Assembly: GCA_012008225.1 (NCBI GenBank)
Contig: GCA_012008225.1_4768.1
From: a phage
Length of the DNA: 61,121 nucleotides
Reading direction: 5' to 3' (one strand)
Below the pieces are notes generated by a model. That model was not told the origin of the DNA. It did no database searches and saw nothing but the letters and a program-made list of their open reading frames with translations. Position 1 is the first letter of the stretch. Every line of letters begins with the position of its first letter. The translations under genes were made by a program, and so were the position numbers. Positions 9,176 to 51,783 of the stretch are shown in pieces.

Positions 9176-9765
9176 TAGAATGCCTCTGAGAATTTTAAAG
9201 TAAATGAGTTATTAAAAGCCGGTTGACGTTTAACACCATTAGTATTTTCAGATAACCGAAAAGTCCCTTGTGGCTTTTGAGTTTCAATCTTTGCGCCATT
9301 TGGAGGAATACTTCTTAGCATTGGGGCAATACTTAGAATCACATTACCAGAGGAATCACTCCATGCGTCCTCTGTTATTAATTTCAACTCATCATTGACT
9401 GTTATATAATCACCTTCGCGTAGAACAAGTTTATCATAATCCCAACCTTTAGTAGATAAAGTTGTCCCACTGTTATTCGCACCATTGACCACAGGTGCTC
9501 CCATTGACGGTCTTCCCCAACGCCCGAAATCTTGAAGCATAATACGACCGGATTTACCATCAAGTCTAGCTAATAATGATTCCAGTTTTCTTGATTCCCA
9601 GTCATTCAGATTATTGAAAGTTAAAGATGCCTCCCACCTAGATCCTGGGTAGGCCACAGTCTGAGAAGCCCCGTTAAAGGGGCTTATAAATTCTACAGAG
9701 TTCGATACTAGATGCCATTCCATCTCGGAAGGTCTAATTTCATCGGGCCAGGTTAATATTGCCAT
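9175..9765 (-). CDS. Minor tail protein (distal tail, M-like by position)
   Basis: 196 aa ORF immediately downstream of tape measure gene; ATG at 9765. Confidence 0.55.
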   Translation of the reverse strand: MAILTWPDEIRPSEMEWHLVSNSVEFISPFNGASQTVAYPGSRWEASLTFNNLNDWESRKLESLLARLDGKSGRIMLQDFGRWGRPSMGAPVVNGANNSGTTLSTKGWDYDKLVLREGDYITVNDELKLITEDAWSDSSGNVILSIAPMLRSIPPNGAKIETQKPQGTFRLSENTNGVKRQPAFNNSFTLKFSEAF

Positions 9766-9767
9766 CT

Positions 9768-12700
9768 TTACCCCAAAGCCATTCTTCTAATAGATCCACG
9801 GTTAGCAAAGTCTTGGAGTACCATGTTATAACCTTGTTGAGCGCCATCTCTTGCAGCCTGCTCAACTGCACTTTTCAAAGCCGCATCACCGTTACCTTGG
9901 ATATTAAAGTTCTGGTTAATGATAACACCACCACCCGAATTATTGCCAGTATTTGATTGTCCTTTGATAAAGTTAGTAAAGTCCGCGTTCTGTTGTGGGC
10001 TAAGAACTCGTTCACCTTTATTCAGAAGCCATGTACCCTCTTCTGGAACGTTCGATATACCATCGTGAGCCATACCAGTAAGAGCGACACTGGACAATGT
10101 CGAGATAATGTTAGCACCAGCGGCCGCAATGGTCGCGTAGTTGGCCATTTTCTGCATCGGTGTCAGTGCTGTCGGGTCAGCTAACACCTGCGACAGTGCG
10201 GTAGTGATACTTAACATCGACTGTGCAATACTGAACGATTTAGACAGTGCGAACATAACCCTGTAAGCACCACTCGCGTCATCACCAGCAGCCGCCATAA
10301 TTGTGGTCATTGACCCAGCCATAGAGCTTAGACTTTCAATGTAAGCCATTGCTGTCTGGTTCTGTGCGAGCATCTGTTTTTGAGCGTATTTCAACTGAAT
10401 GTCGTGTCGTATGCGCTCATAGTTCTCCTTGATAGCGGTTAGTTGCTCTTCTTTACCAGCAGCTAATTCAATCGCTGTTTCATACTGGGATTTAAGTGTT
10501 GCAAGTTCAGCAGCTTCTTGATCGGCAGCTTGTCCAGCAGGGTTCAACTCAGATTGCATCTGCGCACGTTTTGTATAATAATCCGCCTGCAGATTTAATC
10601 TAGCTGTATACGCCTGTTGCTCTGTCAATAAACCAGCTTCAAGTAACTGGTTTATTTCTTGCTGGGCTTCTTTGTATGCACGAACCATTGCAACACCTGG
10701 CTTATACTGCTCCGCCAGTTCTGCACGTTTCAAATCATACTTACGCTGGATAGCAAGCAATGCGTTCTGTAATTCTTCTTCAGATGCTTTAGCTCGTTCA
10801 GCTTTATCGCGAATAGCACGAACTTCAGCTTCTTGCTGTAAGTTAAGACGCTGTAAACCAGTAGCACCACGCGCTTCCACACGTTCATATGCTTTATCCC
10901 ATTGTTCGGCATAACGTGCGGCAGCTTTATTGTCTTTCTTATTCTGACGCTCTTTTTCTTGCTGTTCATGGATCTTCTTCTGAGCGTCATAGTTCTTTCC
11001 AGACAAGTTGATAAATTCAACTAAACCTCGTTGCTCATCTGTCAATACAGCAGTTGCGTCAGCGTGACCGCTAATGTAATTCTTGATGAACGCTTCGTTT
11101 TCTTTATACTTTTTACCAAGAGCCGTCTGAGCATCTTTCAGGATGCTTGCTTGTCGTGCATGACCAGACATCTTCAATTGAGCAACATCGAACTCATTAT
11201 TCTGAGCTTGGATTGCACTGACTAGCTCCTGCGAACGACCGGCAGCAGAACTGATGTTAATAGTCAACTGCTCGTTTTCTGCTTTGAGTGCATCAGTATG
11301 ACCCATTACAGCAGCAGTTAAATTGTTCAGTACAGTCGTTAAGTTAGATTTAACTTGTTGTGCCTTTTGCTCAAGAGTGGATATCTCACCAATCTTAATA
11401 GCAACGTCACCTTCTAACTCCTTACGGTCTTTAGTGAGTCGGTTATACTCGCTTGTTCCTTCAGTCGCTTCAGCTTGATAGCGCGTTACTGTGCTAAGAC
11501 GGTTCTTTAATTCAGCCAACTCTCTGTTTTCAGCAGCAATCTGTTCGTCTAACGTAATAGCGGCACGTTGCAACTGAACACTAAGAGCTCGTTGCTGTTC
11601 AAGAGTTGTTTCTTTTAACTTGTTCTTTAAGTCTTCCTGAGAAGATGCAAGGTTCTGTGCATCCTGAACGGCTTGTTTACTGTTTTGACTCCACATGAAC
11701 CATGCGGCAGCAGCCAATGTGACCACACCTACAGGTCCACCCATCAGTCCCATTACCGTTCGCAAGCCGGTCATGGTAACAGTAAGCACACGGGACGCTA
11801 CAGTCGCGGCAGCCATACGCGCCTGCATGGTAGTCTGGGCAATAGCAACCGCTTCCGTAGCTTCGCGTACCTGCCGCGTATTCTGCATGTATGCGTTGAG
11901 TGTCGCTATACCTTTATAATACGTTTGGTTGGCTTGCAATGCTGCCTGAATCTTGGTGCGCTCGGCTGCAACTTGTGCTAACGTTGCTTGTGCTTCGTTA
12001 TAGCGAGCTACTGCGGATCGTGTGATACCATCAATAGTCTTAATGTTTATAGCCGAGCTACTTGCCTGTATTGCATTGAGCTTGATGAATGCTGCAATTT
12101 GTGCGGCCAGGGCAGTGATCATTCGACCGCCAACAATAGCAGCAACACCGATTGCCGTATTAGACAGCAAGGTGAGGTGGTCTGTAGCAGTTTCGATCAC
12201 GGCACCCATAGAATTGACCACAGTTTGTACTGAGGTCGACGTTCCCGCGAATTTAATTAAGTTGTTATTCGCAATCTCCATTCGTTGCGAGAACGTTGGT
12301 ATCGTACGACCAAACTCATCATCAATGGTGGATGCAGCTTTAGAAATGGAGTTAATAACAACGTCAGCGGTCAACTGTCCAGTGTTGGCCATCTGGCGAA
12401 GACCAGCAGTACCGACACCAAGACCATCTGCAATCATCTTACCAAGACGAGGAGCCTGTTCCATTACAGAACGGAATTCATCCCCACGTAACACACCAGA
12501 TTGCAAACCCTGTGAGAACTGAATAATAGCAGCAGTAGATTCAGCAGTAGTTGCACCTGAAACAATCATTGCCTTGTTAATTGTTTCAGTAATCTGAGCG
12601 ACCTGCTTACCAGTTACACCGTACTGGTTCAGCGAACGTTCCATACGAGCATAAAGAGTTGACGTAGCTTCCAGGCTCGTACGAGTTCTTTGAGCAATAC

Positions 12701-19641: not shown

Positions 19642-20520
19642 TTATTTTTTAACTGGACGTACTGGACGCTTCAAGTCCACGCCAGCCATGGCTGCCAGAC
19701 GGCCTGCTTTTTCAGGATTTTCACGAAGAATTTTACCCTGCTCAGTAAGGTTCCAACCGTCGGCACTCCACGGGTTCTTACCAGCAGCGCCAGGAGTACG
19801 TGAGCCACCAGCACCACCGCCAACGTTTCCAGGGAACCAGTGAGGTTTCTTATCCTGAATGTCCTGTAACCACATTTCTGGAGTGATCCCAGGAGTTACG
19901 CCCACACCGTCGCGTGTCACAACCTGACCGTCTTCGGTGAGCTCAAACAAACGAGAACCAATCAGTTCCACGTCGTCAATAGCTTCCGTGATCACTTTAG
20001 CAGACATTGCAGCCTTGCTAAGAGCGGTCTTAACGATGCGGTTCTTCTCTTTTGTGGTCAGCTCTTCTACTTGCTTCTCATAGGTAGAAAGTTTGTTTTT
20101 CAGCTCGTCACGTTCACGCTCAAGCGGAGTTAACTTGTTACGGATTCGTACGTTAATGATTTGCTCCAACTTTTCATCATCAACTTTATCCGCACGCAGT
20201 TTAAGCTCTTCATATTCAGCGTCGCGCTGCAAGAGTTCGTCAATATCACGTCCGTTCAGCTTACTTAGCTTACTCTTGACCGCTTTATGATCGTTGCGTT
20301 CTTTTTCAAGTGCGGATTGCAACCTGTCAATATTCTGTTTACCACCACCCTTTACACCAGTGAGGATCCACTTATCGCCTTCTTGGGAATAATACTCACG
20401 AGCATTTTCCGGGATTTCATCTTCAGAAGTATATTCAAGTTCCAATGCACCAAAACGAGGCATGGACTGGAAGAAGCCAGCGGAATAAGCTACCGCTAGA
20501 TGAATGTGATATTTGTTCAT
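19642..20520 (-). CDS. Scaffolding protein
   Basis: Coiled-coil Glu/Lys/Arg-rich central region; between portal and capsid genes; ATG at 20520 after GGAGAA (ORF-track GTG at 20547). Confidence 0.6.
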   Translation of the reverse strand: MNKYHIHLAVAYSAGFFQSMPRFGALELEYTSEDEIPENAREYYSQEGDKWILTGVKGGGKQNIDRLQSALEKERNDHKAVKSKLSKLNGRDIDELLQRDAEYEELKLRADKVDDEKLEQIINVRIRNKLTPLERERDELKNKLSTYEKQVEELTTKEKNRIVKTALSKAAMSAKVITEAIDDVELIGSRLFELTEDGQVVTRDGVGVTPGITPEMWLQDIQDKKPHWFPGNVGGGAGGSRTPGAAGKNPWSADGWNLTEQGKILRENPEKAGRLAAMAGVDLKRPVRPVKK

Positions 20521-20548
20521 AAAATTCTCCATTGTGGACCGTTCCACT

Positions 20549-29727: not shown

Positions 29728-29803
29728 TAGCGTGCTAATGGTTGCCCATTGTTGCAGTGGGCTCCCACTAGCAATCCGCTAGAACAACATGGAGATAATT
29801 ACA

Positions 29804-30283
29804 ATGGCTACTATCACTCGCGTAGCAAAAGATGCTCGCTTCTTCACTAATATGTCTAACGCTCGCCGTGCCTTGAAAAAGGTTCTGGATGTGGACACTG
29901 CGACAGCTAACAGCTTTATTCACCAGGAGCCTCTCGAAGACGGTGGCCGCTACTGGTTCAGCGAAAGCGCGGTTAATAAAGCAGCTAACGATCTGGTTGA
30001 AGCTGATAAAGCGACTGTCGTGGAAGTGACCACACAACCTGCTCCAACCGCTCCCGCTAAAAGCAAAACACGCAGCGAAACGCGCAACGGGGTCCGTCGC
30101 CCAATTAAAGGTAAATGTGCAGACGTTTGGAACGCTCTGGATAATATTTTGCCTGATGGTGTGCCAACTATTGGTAACGTCCGTGACCTTGCGAAAGCTA
30201 ATGGTTGGAATATTAATAATGCAACGATTGAATTCTACGCATGGCGTAAATTCCACGGGCTCAATAATAAAGGGGGCAACTAA
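29804..30283 (+). CDS. Hypothetical early protein
   Basis: ATG at 29804 after GGAGA; 159 aa. Confidence 0.55.
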   Translation: MATITRVAKDARFFTNMSNARRALKKVLDVDTATANSFIHQEPLEDGGRYWFSESAVNKAANDLVEADKATVVEVTTQPAPTAPAKSKTRSETRNGVRRPIKGKCADVWNALDNILPDGVPTIGNVRDLAKANGWNINNATIEFYAWRKFHGLNNKGGN

Positions 30284-38507: not shown

Positions 38508-38738
38508 TTATTCGTGCAATTCTAAGAAACCGCATACGACATATTCAAACATCTCATCATAATCTGGTGTTGAAAAGTCTCCAACGTGATACTCACCTTT
38601 CTCGAACGTAACCACAGTTGAAGAGTTCATGTATGTGTACCTAATCTTGTGAGTTCCGTCTGTGCAGTTGTGTGAGAATTCCTCTGACTTGTTCATTGCA
38701 GTTCTGATGTTTCTTTTTACAAGATCTTGGTGAGTCAT
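38508..38738 (-). CDS. Hypothetical protein (lone minus-strand gene inside plus-strand block)
   Basis: 76 aa; ATG at 38738 after GGAGGAA; own promoter upstream. Confidence 0.5.
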   Translation of the reverse strand: MTHQDLVKRNIRTAMNKSEEFSHNCTDGTHKIRYTYMNSSTVVTFEKGEYHVGDFSTPDYDEMFEYVVCGFLELHE

Positions 38739-38761: not shown

Positions 38762-38801
38762 TGTATAATACATACTATAGAGCATTTCCTTAGGAATGCA
38801 A
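38762..38801. promoter_or_regulatory. Back-to-back divergent promoters
   Basis: Plus strand: extended -10 TGTTATAAT (38762-38769). Minus strand: TTGCAT (38801..38796), 16 nt spacer, TATAGT (38779..38774). Confidence 0.4.
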
Positions 38802-44405: not shown

Positions 44406-45152
44406 ATGCAATTTACAACTACCGCTCAAGCAGTTCTGGACACTGGTGTCAAGATGCTTGTGTATGGTGAATCCGGTATGGGTAAAACCATGCTTACAGC
44501 AACTCTTCCAAGACCGTTGCTGATTTCTGCGGAGTCTGGGCTTTTATCTTTAACACCAAATAACATTGCTCGTGTATTTGGTGAAAACAGACCAGATATC
44601 TGTTACGATATTCCAACCATCACGGTTGAAAATATCCAGGATGTGGAGCAGGCTTATGTTTGGGCGACTAACCCTGCAAACAATCCTGTAGGTGAAGATG
44701 GTTTACCGCGCTTTCAGTCTCTTGCGCTGGATTCACTTACTGAGATTGCTGAAAAGTGCCTTAACAATGCGAAGCGTACTGTGAAAGATCCGCGTCAGGC
44801 TTATGGGGATCTCATTGAGAAGATGCAAACTTTAGTTCGCGCTTTTCGAGATATTCCTGGACTTAACGTGTACATGGCAGCTAAAATGTCCCGTAACAAG
44901 GACGAGTTGACAGGTATTACGTCTTACGGTCCTTCTATGCCTGGTGCAAAATTAGGTCCAGAATTACCATACTTTTTTGACGAAGTGTTCAAAATTAGTG
45001 TTGGTAAAGACCAAAATACTCAAGCAGATTTTCGTTATCTGCTGACCAGACCAGATCTGTCAAATGTATGTAAAGATCGTTCTGGTTCGTTAGAACAGAT
45101 GGAATATCCACATCTCGGTGCAATCATTAACAAAATCAAAGGGGTACAATAA
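44406..45152 (+). CDS. Sak4-like RecA-fold ATPase (single-strand annealing / recombination)
   Basis: Walker A GESGMGKTM near N-terminus; 248 aa; followed by an SSB-like gene. Confidence 0.7.
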   Translation: MQFTTTAQAVLDTGVKMLVYGESGMGKTMLTATLPRPLLISAESGLLSLTPNNIARVFGENRPDICYDIPTITVENIQDVEQAYVWATNPANNPVGEDGLPRFQSLALDSLTEIAEKCLNNAKRTVKDPRQAYGDLIEKMQTLVRAFRDIPGLNVYMAAKMSRNKDELTGITSYGPSMPGAKLGPELPYFFDEVFKISVGKDQNTQADFRYLLTRPDLSNVCKDRSGSLEQMEYPHLGAIINKIKGVQ

Positions 45153-46042
45153 TGGCCGGTTTAGGAATGCAATTTAACGCTGGACAACACGCAGAGCGTC
45201 AACACAATAGCTTGATGCCCGCTGGTTGGTATGTTGTTCAGATTGTAAACTCTGAGATCAAACCGACTAAAACTCCAGGCGGTGCGCGTCTGAATCTTCA
45301 GTTTAAGATTATGCAGGGTGATTTTGCTGGTCGTGTAATGTTTGGCGGTTACAACGTCAAGAACGCGAACCCTGTCGCTGTACAGATTGCAATGGAAGAA
45401 CTGGCAGAGCTGTCTCGTGCTGTTAAAGTTCCAGTTTGGAACGATACCGAACAACTGCACGGTATTCCGTTCAACCTGAAAGTGAAAGTTCGTCAGCAAC
45501 CTGGCTATGAGCCAAACAACGAACCTCAGATTTATCAAGCAATTGATAATATGGAAGGTGTTGTATACGCAACTAAAGCGGACATGGCTAACCTGCCTAA
45601 ATCAACTCCGGCAGCGGCAGCACAGTCTCCGGCATTTGGTGGCGGTGCGTTCGGTGGTACTCAGCAACCACAGCAGCAACCGCAGCAGGGTTTCCCGGGC
45701 GCATTTGGGCAGCAGCCGCAGCAACAGCAGCAGCAACCTCAGGCTCAGGGGTTCCAGCAGCAACAACAGCAACAACAGCCGCAGCAGTCTGGAACAGTTG
45801 ATTTTAACAGTGCGGCACAATCTCAACCGTGGGCTAATGGTGCGCAGCAACAGACTCAGCAGCAACCTAACTGGGCAACTCAGCAGGTACAGCCTGGAGC
45901 AGAGCAACCACAAGCTCAAGCTCAGAATACTGGTACTGCTAACCATGCAGAACCTGAAGTCCAGGATGATATCGCTAAAGCAGCTCAGACCAAGACTCCA
46001 CCGTGGAAACGTTCCACTGAAGGCGATGACGCTGCACAGTAA
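45152..46042 (+). CDS. Putative ssDNA-binding partner protein with Gln/Pro-rich low-complexity linker
   Basis: ATG overlaps upstream stop (TAATG); N-terminal ~150 aa globular region, then Q/P-rich tract, acidic C-terminus; function inferred from linkage to Sak4. Confidence 0.45.
   Translation: MAGLGMQFNAGQHAERQHNSLMPAGWYVVQIVNSEIKPTKTPGGARLNLQFKIMQGDFAGRVMFGGYNVKNANPVAVQIAMEELAELSRAVKVPVWNDTEQLHGIPFNLKVKVRQQPGYEPNNEPQIYQAIDNMEGVVYATKADMANLPKSTPAAAAQSPAFGGGAFGGTQQPQQQPQQGFPGAFGQQPQQQQQQPQAQGFQQQQQQQQPQQSGTVDFNSAAQSQPWANGAQQQTQQQPNWATQQVQPGAEQPQAQAQNTGTANHAEPEVQDDIAKAAQTKTPPWKRSTEGDDAAQ
45662..45787 (+). repeat. CAG/CAA-rich low-complexity coding tract (poly-Gln/Pro)
   Basis: Encodes QQPQQQPQQGFPGAFGQQPQQQQQQPQAQGFQQQQQQQQPQQ. 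Confidence 0.8.
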
Positions 46043-49066: not shown

Positions 49067-49306
49067 ATGGCAAAGATGACTTTCAGGAGTAATGACCATT
49101 TACCAGAAGAAGGTGAATGGAAGACTTTTAAAGAGTGGGAAGAGTTAGGTTATGGTGTAATTAAAGGTGAAAGAGCTAAACGGTTTATTCACGGTGTTGC
49201 AGTTTTTCACGAAAGTCAAGTAATCAATATTGAAGATGAGTTCGAAAAATATAAACGTGAAGAACTGCAAGGAATGTATTGTGGACCAGAATGGTGGAAG
49301 GATTAA
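49067..49306 (+). CDS. Hypothetical protein
   Basis: ATG at 49067, 7 nt after GAGG (ORF-track frame from 48899 overlaps helicase); 79 aa. Confidence 0.5.
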   Translation: MAKMTFRSNDHLPEEGEWKTFKEWEELGYGVIKGERAKRFIHGVAVFHESQVINIEDEFEKYKREELQGMYCGPEWWKD

Positions 49307-50029
49307 ATGTACATATTAGTCGATTATGATCGGATGCAGGTATTAGCCAAGCATCCAAACTTCCAACGTCTTCATGAGTATGGAATTCTGTGTTGTAGCG
49401 AAAGCTCCGTAGTTCTTCCGTTGGAAGTTGAAGAACTCTATAAAGAGTTTGATGATGTACAAATGCAACTTTTGTACATCAACTTAACGGGTAATAAGCA
49501 AGGTGCTTTATATCCAAAGAAAATGATCAGTAAGATTATTCACTATTTTTTAAATGAGATACCGGAGACAGTAATAGATGCGGATGTGGCTGAACAAGCG
49601 GACTGGGCAATTGCTAGTAATAAAGAGGGTGAGTGCATGTACCGCGAAGGCAGCTCTGTTCCAGATTTGGGGGAGGAGCCTAATATTCAAGTACGGAATG
49701 ATAGTTCATTGGAATCCACCATCATTGACGGCCCAACCGTACAAACAAACATGGGCGTACAACTGGCATGGACACCGACAAAAGAGCGGCAAGGTACTAG
49801 CACACCGGCAACCGAAAAACGTGCCGCAACGTCGCGTACAGCCGGCACTCGCGATATTATTTTCGCTGTTGCTGACGAAATGTGGAAAGAAGCTTGTGAA
49901 CCTCGTGACAAGAAGGAAATCCTTCAGCTTAGAAAACAAATGATGGATCGTTTAGAGACACAAGGTGTGAAGCGTAATACATCAAGTAATACATTAGGGG
50001 TCTGGGTAAAAGAACGTGGCTTAAATTAA
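49307..50029 (+). CDS. Hypothetical protein
   Basis: 240 aa; ATG at 49307 after GGAAGG. Confidence 0.55.
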   Translation: MYILVDYDRMQVLAKHPNFQRLHEYGILCCSESSVVLPLEVEELYKEFDDVQMQLLYINLTGNKQGALYPKKMISKIIHYFLNEIPETVIDADVAEQADWAIASNKEGECMYREGSSVPDLGEEPNIQVRNDSSLESTIIDGPTVQTNMGVQLAWTPTKERQGTSTPATEKRAATSRTAGTRDIIFAVADEMWKEACEPRDKKEILQLRKQMMDRLETQGVKRNTSSNTLGVWVKERGLN

Positions 50030-50041
50030 TTAACTAAAATA

Positions 50042-50070
50042 TTGCATAGTTCTTTTAGAGGGGTTATAGT
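50042..50070 (+). promoter_or_regulatory. Strong sigma70-like promoter
   Basis: TTGCAT (50042-50047), 17 nt spacer, TATAGT (50065-50070). Confidence 0.5.
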
Positions 50071-50125
50071 GCAACCACTTAGAACGTAGTTCACAACCAA
50101 TAACCACACTGTGAGGATTTAAATC

Positions 50126-50950
50126 ATGGCTAAAGAGAAAACTGAAGATCAACTGTTGGCTGAAGAAGCCGCGAAGAAAGCCGCTGCGGAAGCTGAAGCA
50201 AAGAAAAAACGTGAAGCTGAAGAAAAAGCAGCGCGTGAATTGCAGGCTAAAGTTGACGCCGCAATGAACGAAGCCACTGCCGGTTACAATGTGATCGAAG
50301 GTGCTATGTCCGCTGTTAAAGAACAGTTTGACACTCTGCACGAAGGTTCGTTGCTGGACGAAGTTAAAGCAGTTGAAGGGGTAGTTACCGCTCAACTGAA
50401 GACCGCTAAAGAAGGTCTGAAAGCTGTTAAAGCAGCAGCACGTAAAGTTAAAGACAACGATCAACTAAAAACTGCCGTTGCAGCATCTGAAGATCTGGTT
50501 TCCGGTGTTGAAGCCACTCTGAAAGATGTCAAAGGCCGTGTATCCGCTGCCCGCGAAGCCACTAAAGCCGCTGAAAAAGCAAAACGTGACGCTGACCGCG
50601 CTGAGAAGAAACGTCTGCAGGACGAAGAGCGCGCTCGTAAAGCAGCAGAACGCGAAGCTAAGAAAGAGCCGGAACAGAACGGTATTCGTAAGCCTGGTGC
50701 TGGTACTCTGTGCCGTGCTGCATGGGACATCTTTGACGCTGTTACCATGGAGCTGGGTCAGACTGCACCGATCAGCTACGTTCTGCCGGTTGCACTGGAC
50801 AAAGGCCTGAACGAAGCGAACGTCAAAGCGGAATATGCTCGCTGGAAGAAATACATGGGCATTACTGGTCGCGTATCAGTTCCAGTACCTGCTAATATTG
50901 CACAGGCGGCCGCTAACGTAGAAATTCCGTCTCAGAAATCTGCAGAGTAA
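50126..50950 (+). CDS. Ala/Lys/Glu-rich protein, probably abundant (possible DNA-associated protein)
   Basis: 274 aa; GAGGAT before ATG; codon choice dominated by CTG, CGT, GGT, AAA, GAA, GCT; N-terminal ~190 aa predicted helical, charged; flanked by own promoter and terminator. Confidence 0.65.
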   Translation: MAKEKTEDQLLAEEAAKKAAAEAEAKKKREAEEKAARELQAKVDAAMNEATAGYNVIEGAMSAVKEQFDTLHEGSLLDEVKAVEGVVTAQLKTAKEGLKAVKAAARKVKDNDQLKTAVAASEDLVSGVEATLKDVKGRVSAAREATKAAEKAKRDADRAEKKRLQDEERARKAAEREAKKEPEQNGIRKPGAGTLCRAAWDIFDAVTMELGQTAPISYVLPVALDKGLNEANVKAEYARWKKYMGITGRVSVPVPANIAQAAANVEIPSQKSAE

Positions 50951-50974
50951 TCTGTAGACACTTCGGAAACTCAG

Positions 50975-51003
50975 AAGGGGCATTTACTGCCCCTTTGTTA
51001 TCT
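50975..51003 (+). terminator. Rho-independent terminator
   Basis: AAGGGGCA-TTTAC-TGCCCCTT (8 bp stem) followed by TTTGTTATCTT. Confidence 0.7.
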
Positions 51004-51018
51004 TACCCCGAGGTTCAA

Positions 51019-51783
51019 ATGTTTGCACAAGCCATTATCGCCCACCACTGGGCTCAAGCCAAATTTGGAAATCATATGAAAATTATTAATACTCAGGAAC
51101 CTGAAAAGTTAGTTCGTGAACGCGGTATTCTTGATGTACATTCCATTTTTCATACCATTCAAGGTGAAGGCCCATTTTGTGGTCAACCTGCCGTATTCGT
51201 TCGATTAGCTGGTTGTAACCTGCAATGCCCAGGTTGCGATACAAACTATACGTCCAATCGTAAGAAAATGAGTCATAACGATATCTGGCAAGAGATTGTC
51301 CGTGTTACTGGTGAAGCTAAGACTGAATTAGTTGTTATTACTGGTGGCGAACCTTTCCGTCAACCTGAAGTTGTTAATTTTATTAACTATCTTATTGATA
51401 TGAAAGGATACCGTGTACAGGTTGAAACTAACGGAACTATGCCTATCCCGCGTGAACTCAACTATAGTTGTGTGGTAGTATGTAGTCCTAAGGCAGCAAA
51501 GATTCATCCTAGTGTTTCCGCCAGAGCAGACGCTTTCAAATATGTAATGAAAAGCGGAAACGTCAACGAGGAAGATGGATTACCGTTGCAAGCACTGGAT
51601 CACCGTGCAACACCATTTATCGCACGTCCTTCGGTACACTTTAAAGGTGATATCTACCTTCAACCTATGGATGAACAGGATGACAATGCTAATAAAGCAA
51701 ACGCTCAAGCTGTCGTTAAATATGCAATGAAGCATAATTACATCGTGCAATTGCAGATTCACAAGTATTTAGGTGTAGAGTGA
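51019..51783 (+). CDS. queE: 7-carboxy-7-deazaguanine synthase (radical SAM, QueE)
   Basis: TIQGEGPFCGQPAVFVRLAGCNLQCPGCDT radical-SAM cluster motif; ATG at 51019 after GAGG (alternative ATG at 51076; ORF-track start 50995). Confidence 0.85.
   Translation: MFAQAIIAHHWAQAKFGNHMKIINTQEPEKLVRERGILDVHSIFHTIQGEGPFCGQPAVFVRLAGCNLQCPGCDTNYTSNRKKMSHNDIWQEIVRVTGEAKTELVVITGGEPFRQPEVVNFINYLIDMKGYRVQVETNGTMPIPRELNYSCVVVCSPKAAKIHPSVSARADAFKYVMKSGNVNEEDGLPLQALDHRATPFIARPSVHFKGDIYLQPMDEQDDNANKANAQAVVKYAMKHNYIVQLQIHKYLGVE

Follow-up and report, generated by a model that had tools for sequence, protein, structure and literature searches.

Directly 5′ of queE and the deazaguanine modification operon, phage 9g and its relatives carry a gene that has neither a name nor a Pfam model, and the question is what its product does for the phage. 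In the genome analysed here (GenBank assembly GCA_012008225.1, contig GCA_012008225.1_4768.1; 61,121 nt, hereafter the window), the gene is an open reading frame (ORF) of 274 amino acids (aa), and it was delimited correctly in a first-pass annotation that had been made from the letters alone. By its codon signal, it would be the most strongly expressed gene of 9g, of the BASEL phages Bas19-25 and of the therapy-candidate Rosemountvirus group. The evidence, which comes from sequence comparison and structure prediction, led us to favour, tentatively, the view that the product is an abundant architectural protein which binds DNA and belongs to the replication module, with a layout like that of the plasmid protein KfrA. 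The coordinates of the features are collected in Table 1.

Codon usage and predicted fold of the 274-aa protein

The codon adaptation index (CAI) was calculated with the Sharp & Li weights for E. coli. The gene scored 0.602 and ranked first among the 78 ORFs (mean 0.295, standard deviation (sd) 0.081, z = 3.8), followed by the major capsid protein gene (0.579; phrog_247) and that of the DUF669 single-strand DNA-binding protein (SSB; 0.467). The two halves of the gene were alike in this respect, at 0.605 and 0.595. When synonymous codons were drawn according to phage-wide usage (2,000 draws), the composition-matched CAI was 0.355 ± 0.025 with a maximum of 0.459. The gene lies ~10 sd above this expectation, which rules out a composition artefact as the source of its high value. 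The codon choice of highly expressed E. coli genes, remarked on in the first-pass annotation, was thereby confirmed, and it recurs in the homologs of two other coliphage genera. In Seuratvirus SeppeHuegi, the homolog ranks first of 51 coding sequences (CDSs; 0.55, with the capsid gene at 0.53), while in Rosemountvirus AV127 the homolog has a CAI of 0.67 compared to 0.71 for a capsid-like gene and 0.28 for the helicase. The other high-CAI genes of the phage encode stoichiometric proteins (capsid, SSB and scaffold). Since the third-highest value belongs to the DUF669 SSB, CAI in this phage tracks the proteins expected in stoichiometric amounts.

At the protein level, a permuted homolog, Gp60 of phage fHy-Eco03, was reported from liquid chromatography-tandem mass spectrometry with 6 peptides and 45% coverage. 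The label ‘structural protein’ given to Gp60 was rejected, because the ‘particle’ preparation held 48 of the 81 gene products, including the helicase, the polymerase and thymidylate synthase. The detection shows that the protein is made; it is not proof of a structural role. In the text of the Vid5 paper, the virion proteins named are the predicted structural proteins together with gp07, gp99 and the gp10 depolymerase, and in that of the R7M paper they are 13 predicted structural proteins and ORF28, with the homolog named in neither. The 9g genome paper contains no proteomics.

The AlphaFold2 model (96 homologs) had a pLDDT of 90.9. Three long helices (residues 7-68, 77-107 and 112-178; pLDDT 89-98) are predicted to be followed by a C-terminal domain made up of a beta-hairpin (183-188) and helices at residues 195-210, 216-225 and 230-243, the fold of which was also confident (pLDDT 86-91). 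The model thus bears out the earlier description of a helical, charged N-terminus with a small globular C-terminal domain. The N-terminal 182 residues contain 23% Ala, 15% Lys and 15% Glu. Within this part, a bundle domain (residues ~40-145) was restricted to enterobacterial phages (Nonagvirus, Seuratvirus and Klebsiella phages), and the rest is an (EAAAK)-like stalk, the length of which differs between lineages. In the homologs, the N-terminal part comprises 80-180 aa of (EAAAK)n-like rigid helices with 23-41% Ala, ~20% Lys and ~19% Glu. The motif at the extreme N-terminus was kept in ~80% of the homologs (T6 in 77, E8 in 80 and A12 in 87 of 96) and may simply cap the helix at its N-terminus or else be a short motif for binding.

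The C-terminal domain of ~70 aa is defined by the motif P-E-Q-N-G-[IV]-R-[RK]-P ... C ... W ... D ... G-L-N-E-x-N ... E-Y-A-R-W-[RK]-K-[FY]-x-G ... G-R. It was basic in each of 67 homologs (67/67), with a net charge of +2 to +7 and an isoelectric point (pI) of 8.8-10.9; in the 274-aa protein its pI is 9.0. Helix 3 was near-invariant in phages of Escherichia, Pseudomonas, Vibrio, Rhizobium and Alteromonas. A Foldseek search of the PDB with the full model returned generic antiparallel three-helix bundles only (E at least 0.16), and several protein-binding winged helices were among the best structural matches of the C-terminal domain. Homeodomain and winged-helix domains are weakly similar to it in their three-helix core, at scores that any small three-helix domain would reach, and share 2-18% identity and no sequence similarity with it. 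The arrangement also differs, as the hairpin comes before helix 1 whereas the wing of a winged helix comes after helix 3.

The domain family and its genome setting

No significant sequence match came from Pfam, NCBIfam or the PDB, whether the protein itself or profiles were used as the query. Among the PHROGs, the protein matched phrog_11298 over residues 1-274 (E = 6e-127) and phrog_18634 over residues 96-263 (E = 3e-26). PHROG 11298 and the related PHROGs are all annotated as ‘unknown function’, and a BFVD fold search returned uncharacterised family members only. A profile of the domain, run against 1.84 billion proteins, retrieved 2,081 representatives of clusters at 50% identity (E ≤ 1e-3), and some of the family proteins contain two to three tandem copies. 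In 185,579 species genomes, scanned with the motifs of the domain type of the 274-aa protein only, 7 contigs matched, mostly phage-sized contigs of metagenome-assembled genomes (MAGs) or short, likely contaminant fragments, and tblastn against 72,556 plasmids gave no match. On account of these two results, the family is apparently confined to lytic phages.

Matches to the C-terminal domain in a 2.9-kb contig of Sulfoacidibacillus thermotolerans (contig60, NZ_MPDK01000060.1) and in a 329-bp sequence of Dyella japonica, which reach 95-100% where the sequences align, probably stem from contamination with a Nonagvirus-type coliphage and not from bacterial genes. The 349-kb record of Vibrio phage V07 (MT135025.1, UNVERIFIED_ORG), classed as Schizotequatrovirus, carries the domain followed by ORFs sized like queE and gat-queC. 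This arrangement is typical of ~58-kb siphophages, and two phages may have been joined in the record by chimeric assembly. The labels ‘transcriptional activator’, ‘FtrA domain’ and ‘plectin’ attached to homologs in GenBank are not discussed in the R7M and Iggy papers and were not used. The Ksap1/KpAvs2 paper (PMC11564622) was set aside as a source, as it covers other proteins (Dhillonvirus Ksap1 and the Bas22 terminase).

Two further copies of the domain were found in the window. The second clear copy belongs to a 164-aa protein, the gene of which is close to the 5′ end of the gene block on the + strand; this protein cross-matches phrog_21588, 18634 and 11298. In other genera, paralogs of this type, such as NP1 gp43 and R7M gp52, have their genes between those for the helicase and p240. 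The 164-aa protein begins with a small ‘SNARRA’ domain, continues with a linker and then has the basic domain; the ‘SNARRA’-type domain of R7M gp52 gave a sub-threshold match to Pfam DUF5633 (E = 6.6e-4). The third copy, which is divergent, forms the C-terminus of p240, the 240-aa protein encoded just upstream. The p240 C-terminus was not matched by BLASTP or by the hidden Markov model (HMM) for the domain type of the 274-aa protein, and the relation was recovered by profile comparison (hhalign E = 3.2e-5, probability 73%) and by PHROG cross-matches. A tandem-domain protein (P0121) matched positions 177-241 of phrog_7864 with E = 6e-21 and p240 by BLASTP with E = 8e-4, and p240-type ORFs of other lineages were matched directly by the domain HMM. 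Each of the paralog copies carries a charge of +4, even that of p240, which is acidic overall (-9). Apart from its basic copy, in which IIFAVADEM occurs, p240 has a conserved N-terminal domain (MYILVDYDRMQVLAKHPNF...); the Seuratvirus p240, of 164 aa, is without the C-terminal copy.

In metagenomic data, single chains join the p240 N-domain, or the DUF5633-like N-domain of the other paralog, to a Lys/Ala/Glu (KAE)-rich rod and the domain. As the paralog copies and these fusions carry different N-terminal parts, the domain behaves as a common module. In seven of the chains (P0143, P0175, P0200, P0210, P0243, P0259 and P0203), the basic domain shares one polypeptide with the p240 N-domain and a KAE-rich helix. 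These chains may be genuine gene fusions, giving a Rosetta-stone link between p240 and the 274-aa protein, or read-through gene calls.

The region 49900-51100 was 95-97.5% identical to 18 genomes of Nonagvirus (9g-like, Queuovirinae), including SE1, PD328, SP8, BRET, JenP1/2, JenK1 and 9g, where the gene is locus 9g_00009; in 18 of 18 records its product is a ‘hypothetical protein’, and the CDS itself was 95-98% conserved among them. On the 5′ side, the gene is preceded by those for the DUF669-type SSB, a Cas4-type nuclease, a superfamily 2 (SF2) helicase, a 79-aa ORF and p240. On the 3′ side follow, in order, queE, an uncharacterised ORF, gat-queC, queD, folE, a DpdA-type transglycosylase, the clamp and the DNA polymerase. 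The SF2 helicase was upstream of the gene in every one of ~90 loci compared. Across 80 IMG/VR loci retrieved with the domain, the order was helicase, p240, the gene under study, queE, queC, queD, folE, dpdA, clamp and polymerase, counted as far as each contig extends. The helicase-to-polymerase order was also kept in annotated phages of Pseudomonas, Alteromonas, Rhizobium, Acinetobacter and Microcystis, and the position directly 5′ of queE in annotated Queuovirinae, Kleczkowskavirus, Acinetobacter and Microcystis phages. The 79-aa ORF gave a near-threshold Pfam match to the N-terminal, single-stranded DNA-binding domain of the anti-restriction factor ArdC (E = 2.7e-4; 21.6 bits, cutoff 22.6).

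Rosemountvirus AV127 (53 kb) possesses the helicase, SSB and nuclease, and no queE, queC, queD, folE or dpdA was found in it by tblastn. The gene next after that of the helicase codes for a 175-aa protein in which the order of the parts is swapped, the domain being N-terminal and the KAE-rich helix following, and this homolog was kept in 62 records. Because a phage without que and dpdA genes keeps the homolog beside the helicase, the domain family, judged by gene content, travels with the helicase/replication block and not with deazaguanine chemistry. A counter-example is Siaravirus Bhz55, where the replication block is present without que genes and without a copy of the domain. In the slot between helicase and clamp (9663-10472), this Stenotrophomonas phage encodes a Band_7/SPFH-like protein with an N-terminal hydrophobic segment and a terminator of its own.

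Transcription signals and the queE leader

The N-terminus (MAKEKTEDQ..) is kept in homologs, which supports the start codon, and the GAGGA before it was rightly described as a good Shine-Dalgarno (SD) site. Further upstream, TTGCAT and TATAGT with a 17-nt spacer had been taken for a near-consensus promoter. The site is there; ‘near-consensus’ is an overstatement, because it agrees with the sigma-70 consensus at 8 of 12 positions (3/6 in the -35 and 5/6 in the -10 hexamer) and did not appear in the list of a sigma-70 scanner for the window. A chance occurrence is nevertheless unlikely on sequence grounds. With 0.04 occurrences expected, the window contains the exact hexamer pair twice, none of 100 shuffles reached two, and both copies are intergenic and 5′ of a start codon with an SD. 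Moreover, TTGCA[AT]-17-TAnnnT sites were found 40-65 nt 5′ of the homologous gene in many distant phage contigs from other hosts. Based on this recurrence and on the sites preceding distant homologs, the promoter is probably real. Nothing operator-like was seen among the small repeats near it. The ORF behind the second site (38508..38738, 76 aa, GGAGGA SD) is the lone minus-strand ORF in the + strand early region.

On the 3′ side of the gene, a stem-loop of 9 pairs (5 GC) with a 5-nt loop (50974..50996) is followed by TTTGTTATCTT. The depositors of SP8, HdK1 and HdSG1 annotated a terminator at this hairpin, which is kept in Nonagvirus and the Klebsiella-phage relatives; in other lineages, a terminator hairpin lies behind the gene in about one third. 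The T-tract is interrupted, and the hairpin, previously called a strong terminator, probably acts as a partial one. The target region had no Rfam match. No + strand promoter was detected by scanning between the terminator and queE, a gap of only ~20 nt, and for this reason the modification operon probably depends on read-through past the terminator. The unit therefore has its promoter-like site, SD, ORF and hairpin as first described and may serve as a compact natural high-expression cassette, but in effect it is not self-contained. Through its presumed leakiness, the hairpin would probably be an attenuator that sets a high ratio of the 274-aa protein to the que products.

Folding of the RNA from 50953 to 51027 gave -23 to -27 kcal/mol (z = -3.1), with a predicted outer helix around the hairpin that covers the queE SD (GAGG, 51008-11) and the queE start codon at 51019. 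The ACTCGG/CCGAG pairing of this helix was kept in two Klebsiella-phage relatives (L015 and L016). If formed, the outer helix may make the translation of queE dependent on what happens at the terminator.

Table 1. Features of the locus and related features elsewhere in the window
Feature	Position	Strand	Details
Head scaffolding protein, between portal and capsid genes	19642..20532	-	phrog_206, E = 2.4e-50
Second clear domain copy, in the 164-aa protein 29789..30283 (PHROG 17772)	30080..30271	+	Domain HMM, E = 2.9e-9
Second promoter-like site, TTGCAT-N16-TATAGT	38774-38801	-	Start codon 36 nt further on, with a GGAGGA SD
DUF669 / phrog_6015 SSB	45152-46042	+	Third-highest CAI
79-aa ORF between helicase and p240	49067-49306	+	
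Third, divergent domain copy, C-terminus of p240 (49307..50029, 240 aa, PHROG 7864)	49829..50023	+	Profile comparison
Promoter-like site, TTGCAT / 17-nt spacer / TATAGT	50042..50070	+	-35 at 50042-47, -10 at 50065-70
SD, GAGGA	50113..50117	+	8 nt 5′ of the ATG
CDS of the 274-aa protein	50126..50950	+	29.4 kDa, pI 8.4, ATG start, TAA stop, PHROG 11298, top CAI of the genome
Conserved N-terminal motif, E-K-T-x-E-Q-[LI]-x-A-E-x-A	50132..50170	+	Column counts, 96 homologs
Ala/Lys/Glu-rich helical part	50144..50659	+	AlphaFold2 helices
Conserved basic C-terminal domain, residues 182-250	50669..50875	+	PEQNG-I-R-K-P hairpin/arm and three helices, end EYARWKKY-G
Predicted outer helix around the terminator hairpin (50953-50966 with 51007-51027)	50953..51027	+	From folding only
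Terminator-like hairpin (GAAGGGGCA / TGCCCCTTT, 5-nt loop), interrupted T-tract	50974..51004	+	

Proposed function and comparison with known systems

From the anatomy, codon bias, fold class, charge, paralogy and synteny, we infer DNA binding, coating or oligomerisation, and the reading tentatively preferred is that of an abundant architectural protein of the replication module. The protein would consist of two modules, a basic tri-helical domain of helix-turn-helix (HTH)-like type with a basic hairpin or arm (NG-[IV]-R-[RK]-P), and a rigid Ala/Lys/Glu-rich rod. The basic domain would bind nucleic acid, most plausibly the double-stranded DNA of the phage, with little sequence specificity, and the helical part would be a spacer or a self-association surface. 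In stoichiometric amounts, the protein would coat or organise the DNA of the phage during replication, in the manner of an architectural ‘phage chromatin’ or of a scaffold, and the two other domain-bearing proteins of the phage would be brought to its binding partner or site. Expression would come from its own sigma-70-type promoter and from upstream read-through, and the leaky terminator would let a fraction of the transcripts into queE and the deazaguanine operon. Nucleic-acid binding is favoured because the domain folds confidently, is always basic and sometimes occurs in two to three tandem copies. Of the roles first suggested, an abundant DNA-coating, nucleoid-remodelling or decoy protein, DNA coating fits the basic HTH-like domain, whereas a decoy is not supported by a net charge of +2 and a pI of 8.4.

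Several points weigh against the architectural reading and its likeness to KfrA. At these values the full-length protein is mildly basic, and its helical part is slightly acidic. CAI is a proxy for expression level, and no transcriptome or infected-cell proteome of Queuovirinae was found in the literature. When a KfrA_N alignment (120 sequences, of low diversity at ≥60% identity) was compared by hhalign, the probability was 1.4% (E = 0.037) for the domain type of the 274-aa protein, 12% (E = 0.0024) for all domain types and 29% (E = 5.7e-4) for the p240 family, with helix 1 and helix 3 weakly in a consistent register. Pfam KfrA_N (PF11740, gathering score 26.1 bits) did not match the 274-aa protein, 29 C-terminal domains or 10 diverse members. 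Among 8 proteins scanned, the sole match was NP1 gp43, which is below threshold (15.2 bits, E = 0.037). Given these hhalign probabilities and the Pfam result, the relation to KfrA is one of resemblance, and membership is not established. Finally, a near-invariant helix 3 across hosts would fit a conserved protein partner equally well.

This last point leads to a serious, although less likely, rival, namely a protein-protein adaptor or hub. The basic domain would dock on one conserved phage protein (helicase, clamp, polymerase or SSB) or host protein (RNA polymerase or DnaK), and the three paralogs would bring different N-terminal modules to this partner, with the abundant rod acting as a spacer, tether or competitor. 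The presence of the domain on three unrelated N-terminal modules in one phage is consistent with such a role, as are the metagenomic chains in which the domain is fused to the p240 N-domain and the KAE rod, the conservation of helix 3 and of the N-terminal peptide, the constant position beside the helicase and the protein-binding winged helices among the structural matches. On the other hand, capsid-level abundance is hard to square with a low-copy enzyme as the partner, an always-basic domain and its Arg/Lys-Pro arm point more towards contact with nucleic acid, tandem arrays of two to three domains are commoner in nucleic-acid binders, and no data indicate a partner. An unlikely extension of the architectural reading is a hitherto unrecognised phage ‘chromatin/cytoskeleton’ class, in which a KfrA-like rod and head, present at capsid-like levels, would polymerise on replicating DNA and organise a replication or packaging compartment, the domain serving as an address tag that recruits the 164-aa protein and p240.

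It is improbable that the protein is a helper of 7-deazaguanine DNA modification that recognises or prepares DNA for DpdA, or reads or protects archaeosine- or preQ0-modified DNA. This would explain the position immediately 5′ of queE, which was found in the 80 IMG/VR loci wherever downstream sequence exists. It would also agree with queE being on the same transcript via the leaky terminator and with Bhz55 lacking both the que genes and the domain. However, the whole helicase-to-polymerase block is syntenic in Queuovirinae, so that adjacency to queE is not independent evidence, and the scan of species genomes gave the few, mostly phage-derived or contaminant matches described above. Above all, the permuted homolog of AV127 occurs without any of the five deazaguanine genes, and co-occurrence with dpdA and queCDE was not seen beyond the shared ancestry of the block. 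The location upstream of the modification operon, given in the first-pass annotation, is correct, with a link that is positional only.

Equally improbable is a role in anti-defence or host takeover, for which the protein would be produced in large amounts and act as a sponge or decoy for an immune or nucleoid protein of the host. A highly expressed early/middle-region gene with a promoter of its own recalls strategies of the T7 Ocr type, the family is phage-restricted and variable in length, and the gene for one paralog is close to the 5′ end of the + strand block. Against this, neither the protein nor its C-terminal domain is acidic, so an Ocr/ArdA-type DNA mimic is not indicated; the domain is under strong purifying conservation across hosts and not the rapid diversification typical of anti-defence genes, and the gene belongs to the core syntenic replication block and not to an accessory island. 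An assembly scaffold or morphogenetic chaperone, with a C-terminal helix-turn-helix binding coat protein, is very improbable, since the resemblance to the elongated, stoichiometric scaffolding proteins of the P22 gp8 type in long helices, small C-terminal helical domain and expression level is outweighed by a separate canonical scaffold gene, by the location of the gene within the replication block, which is 30 kb distant and on the opposite strand, by the Rosemountvirus homolog being likewise beside the helicase and by the sharing of the domain with two non-morphogenetic proteins and with tandem arrays. Homology to a structural protein, named at the outset as a finding that would speak against an abundant DNA-coating role, was not detected.

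If the 274-aa protein does coat or organise phage DNA, as preferred here, this would bear on phage replication, on the exposure of the DNA to base exchange by DpdA and on the late switch, which is made with host RNA polymerase only. The domain family is large, with ~2,000 clusters, three members per genome and a tie to the helicase, and a family model would group thousands of ‘hypothetical proteins’.

Among known phage proteins, phi29 p6, SPO1 TF1 and T5 D5 are non-virion, very abundant products of the early or middle region that are thought to coat phage DNA and to aid replication or transcription. The abundance of the 274-aa protein would be like that of p6 and TF1. No sequence or fold relation exists to any of the three, TF1 being HU-like and p6 having its own fold, and the DNA binding of the 274-aa protein is predicted.

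The closer comparison is with KfrA of IncP-1 and IncU plasmids, in which a small helical head of DNA-binding type is likewise combined with a long, Ala-rich, charged helix, in KfrA a coiled-coil tail. KfrA-type proteins are DNA binders that oligomerise and assemble into filaments on the DNA (PMC7821693). The head of R751 KfrA starts with QIFAVADEL ... EWRARK, which corresponds in the same register to IIFAVADEM ... VWVK in p240 and to WDIFD ... RWKK in the 274-aa protein. The Rosemountvirus homolog has the KfrA order of head and then tail, whereas in Queuovirinae the rod comes first and the domain forms the end. The phage domain differs from the KfrA head by its extra N-terminal beta-hairpin or basic arm. 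The setting differs as well, as KfrA is a low-level autoregulator, whereas the phage protein is encoded beside a helicase and apparently made at capsid-like levels. If the proposed role holds, the 274-aa protein would be a phage counterpart to the KfrA-type proteins of plasmids.

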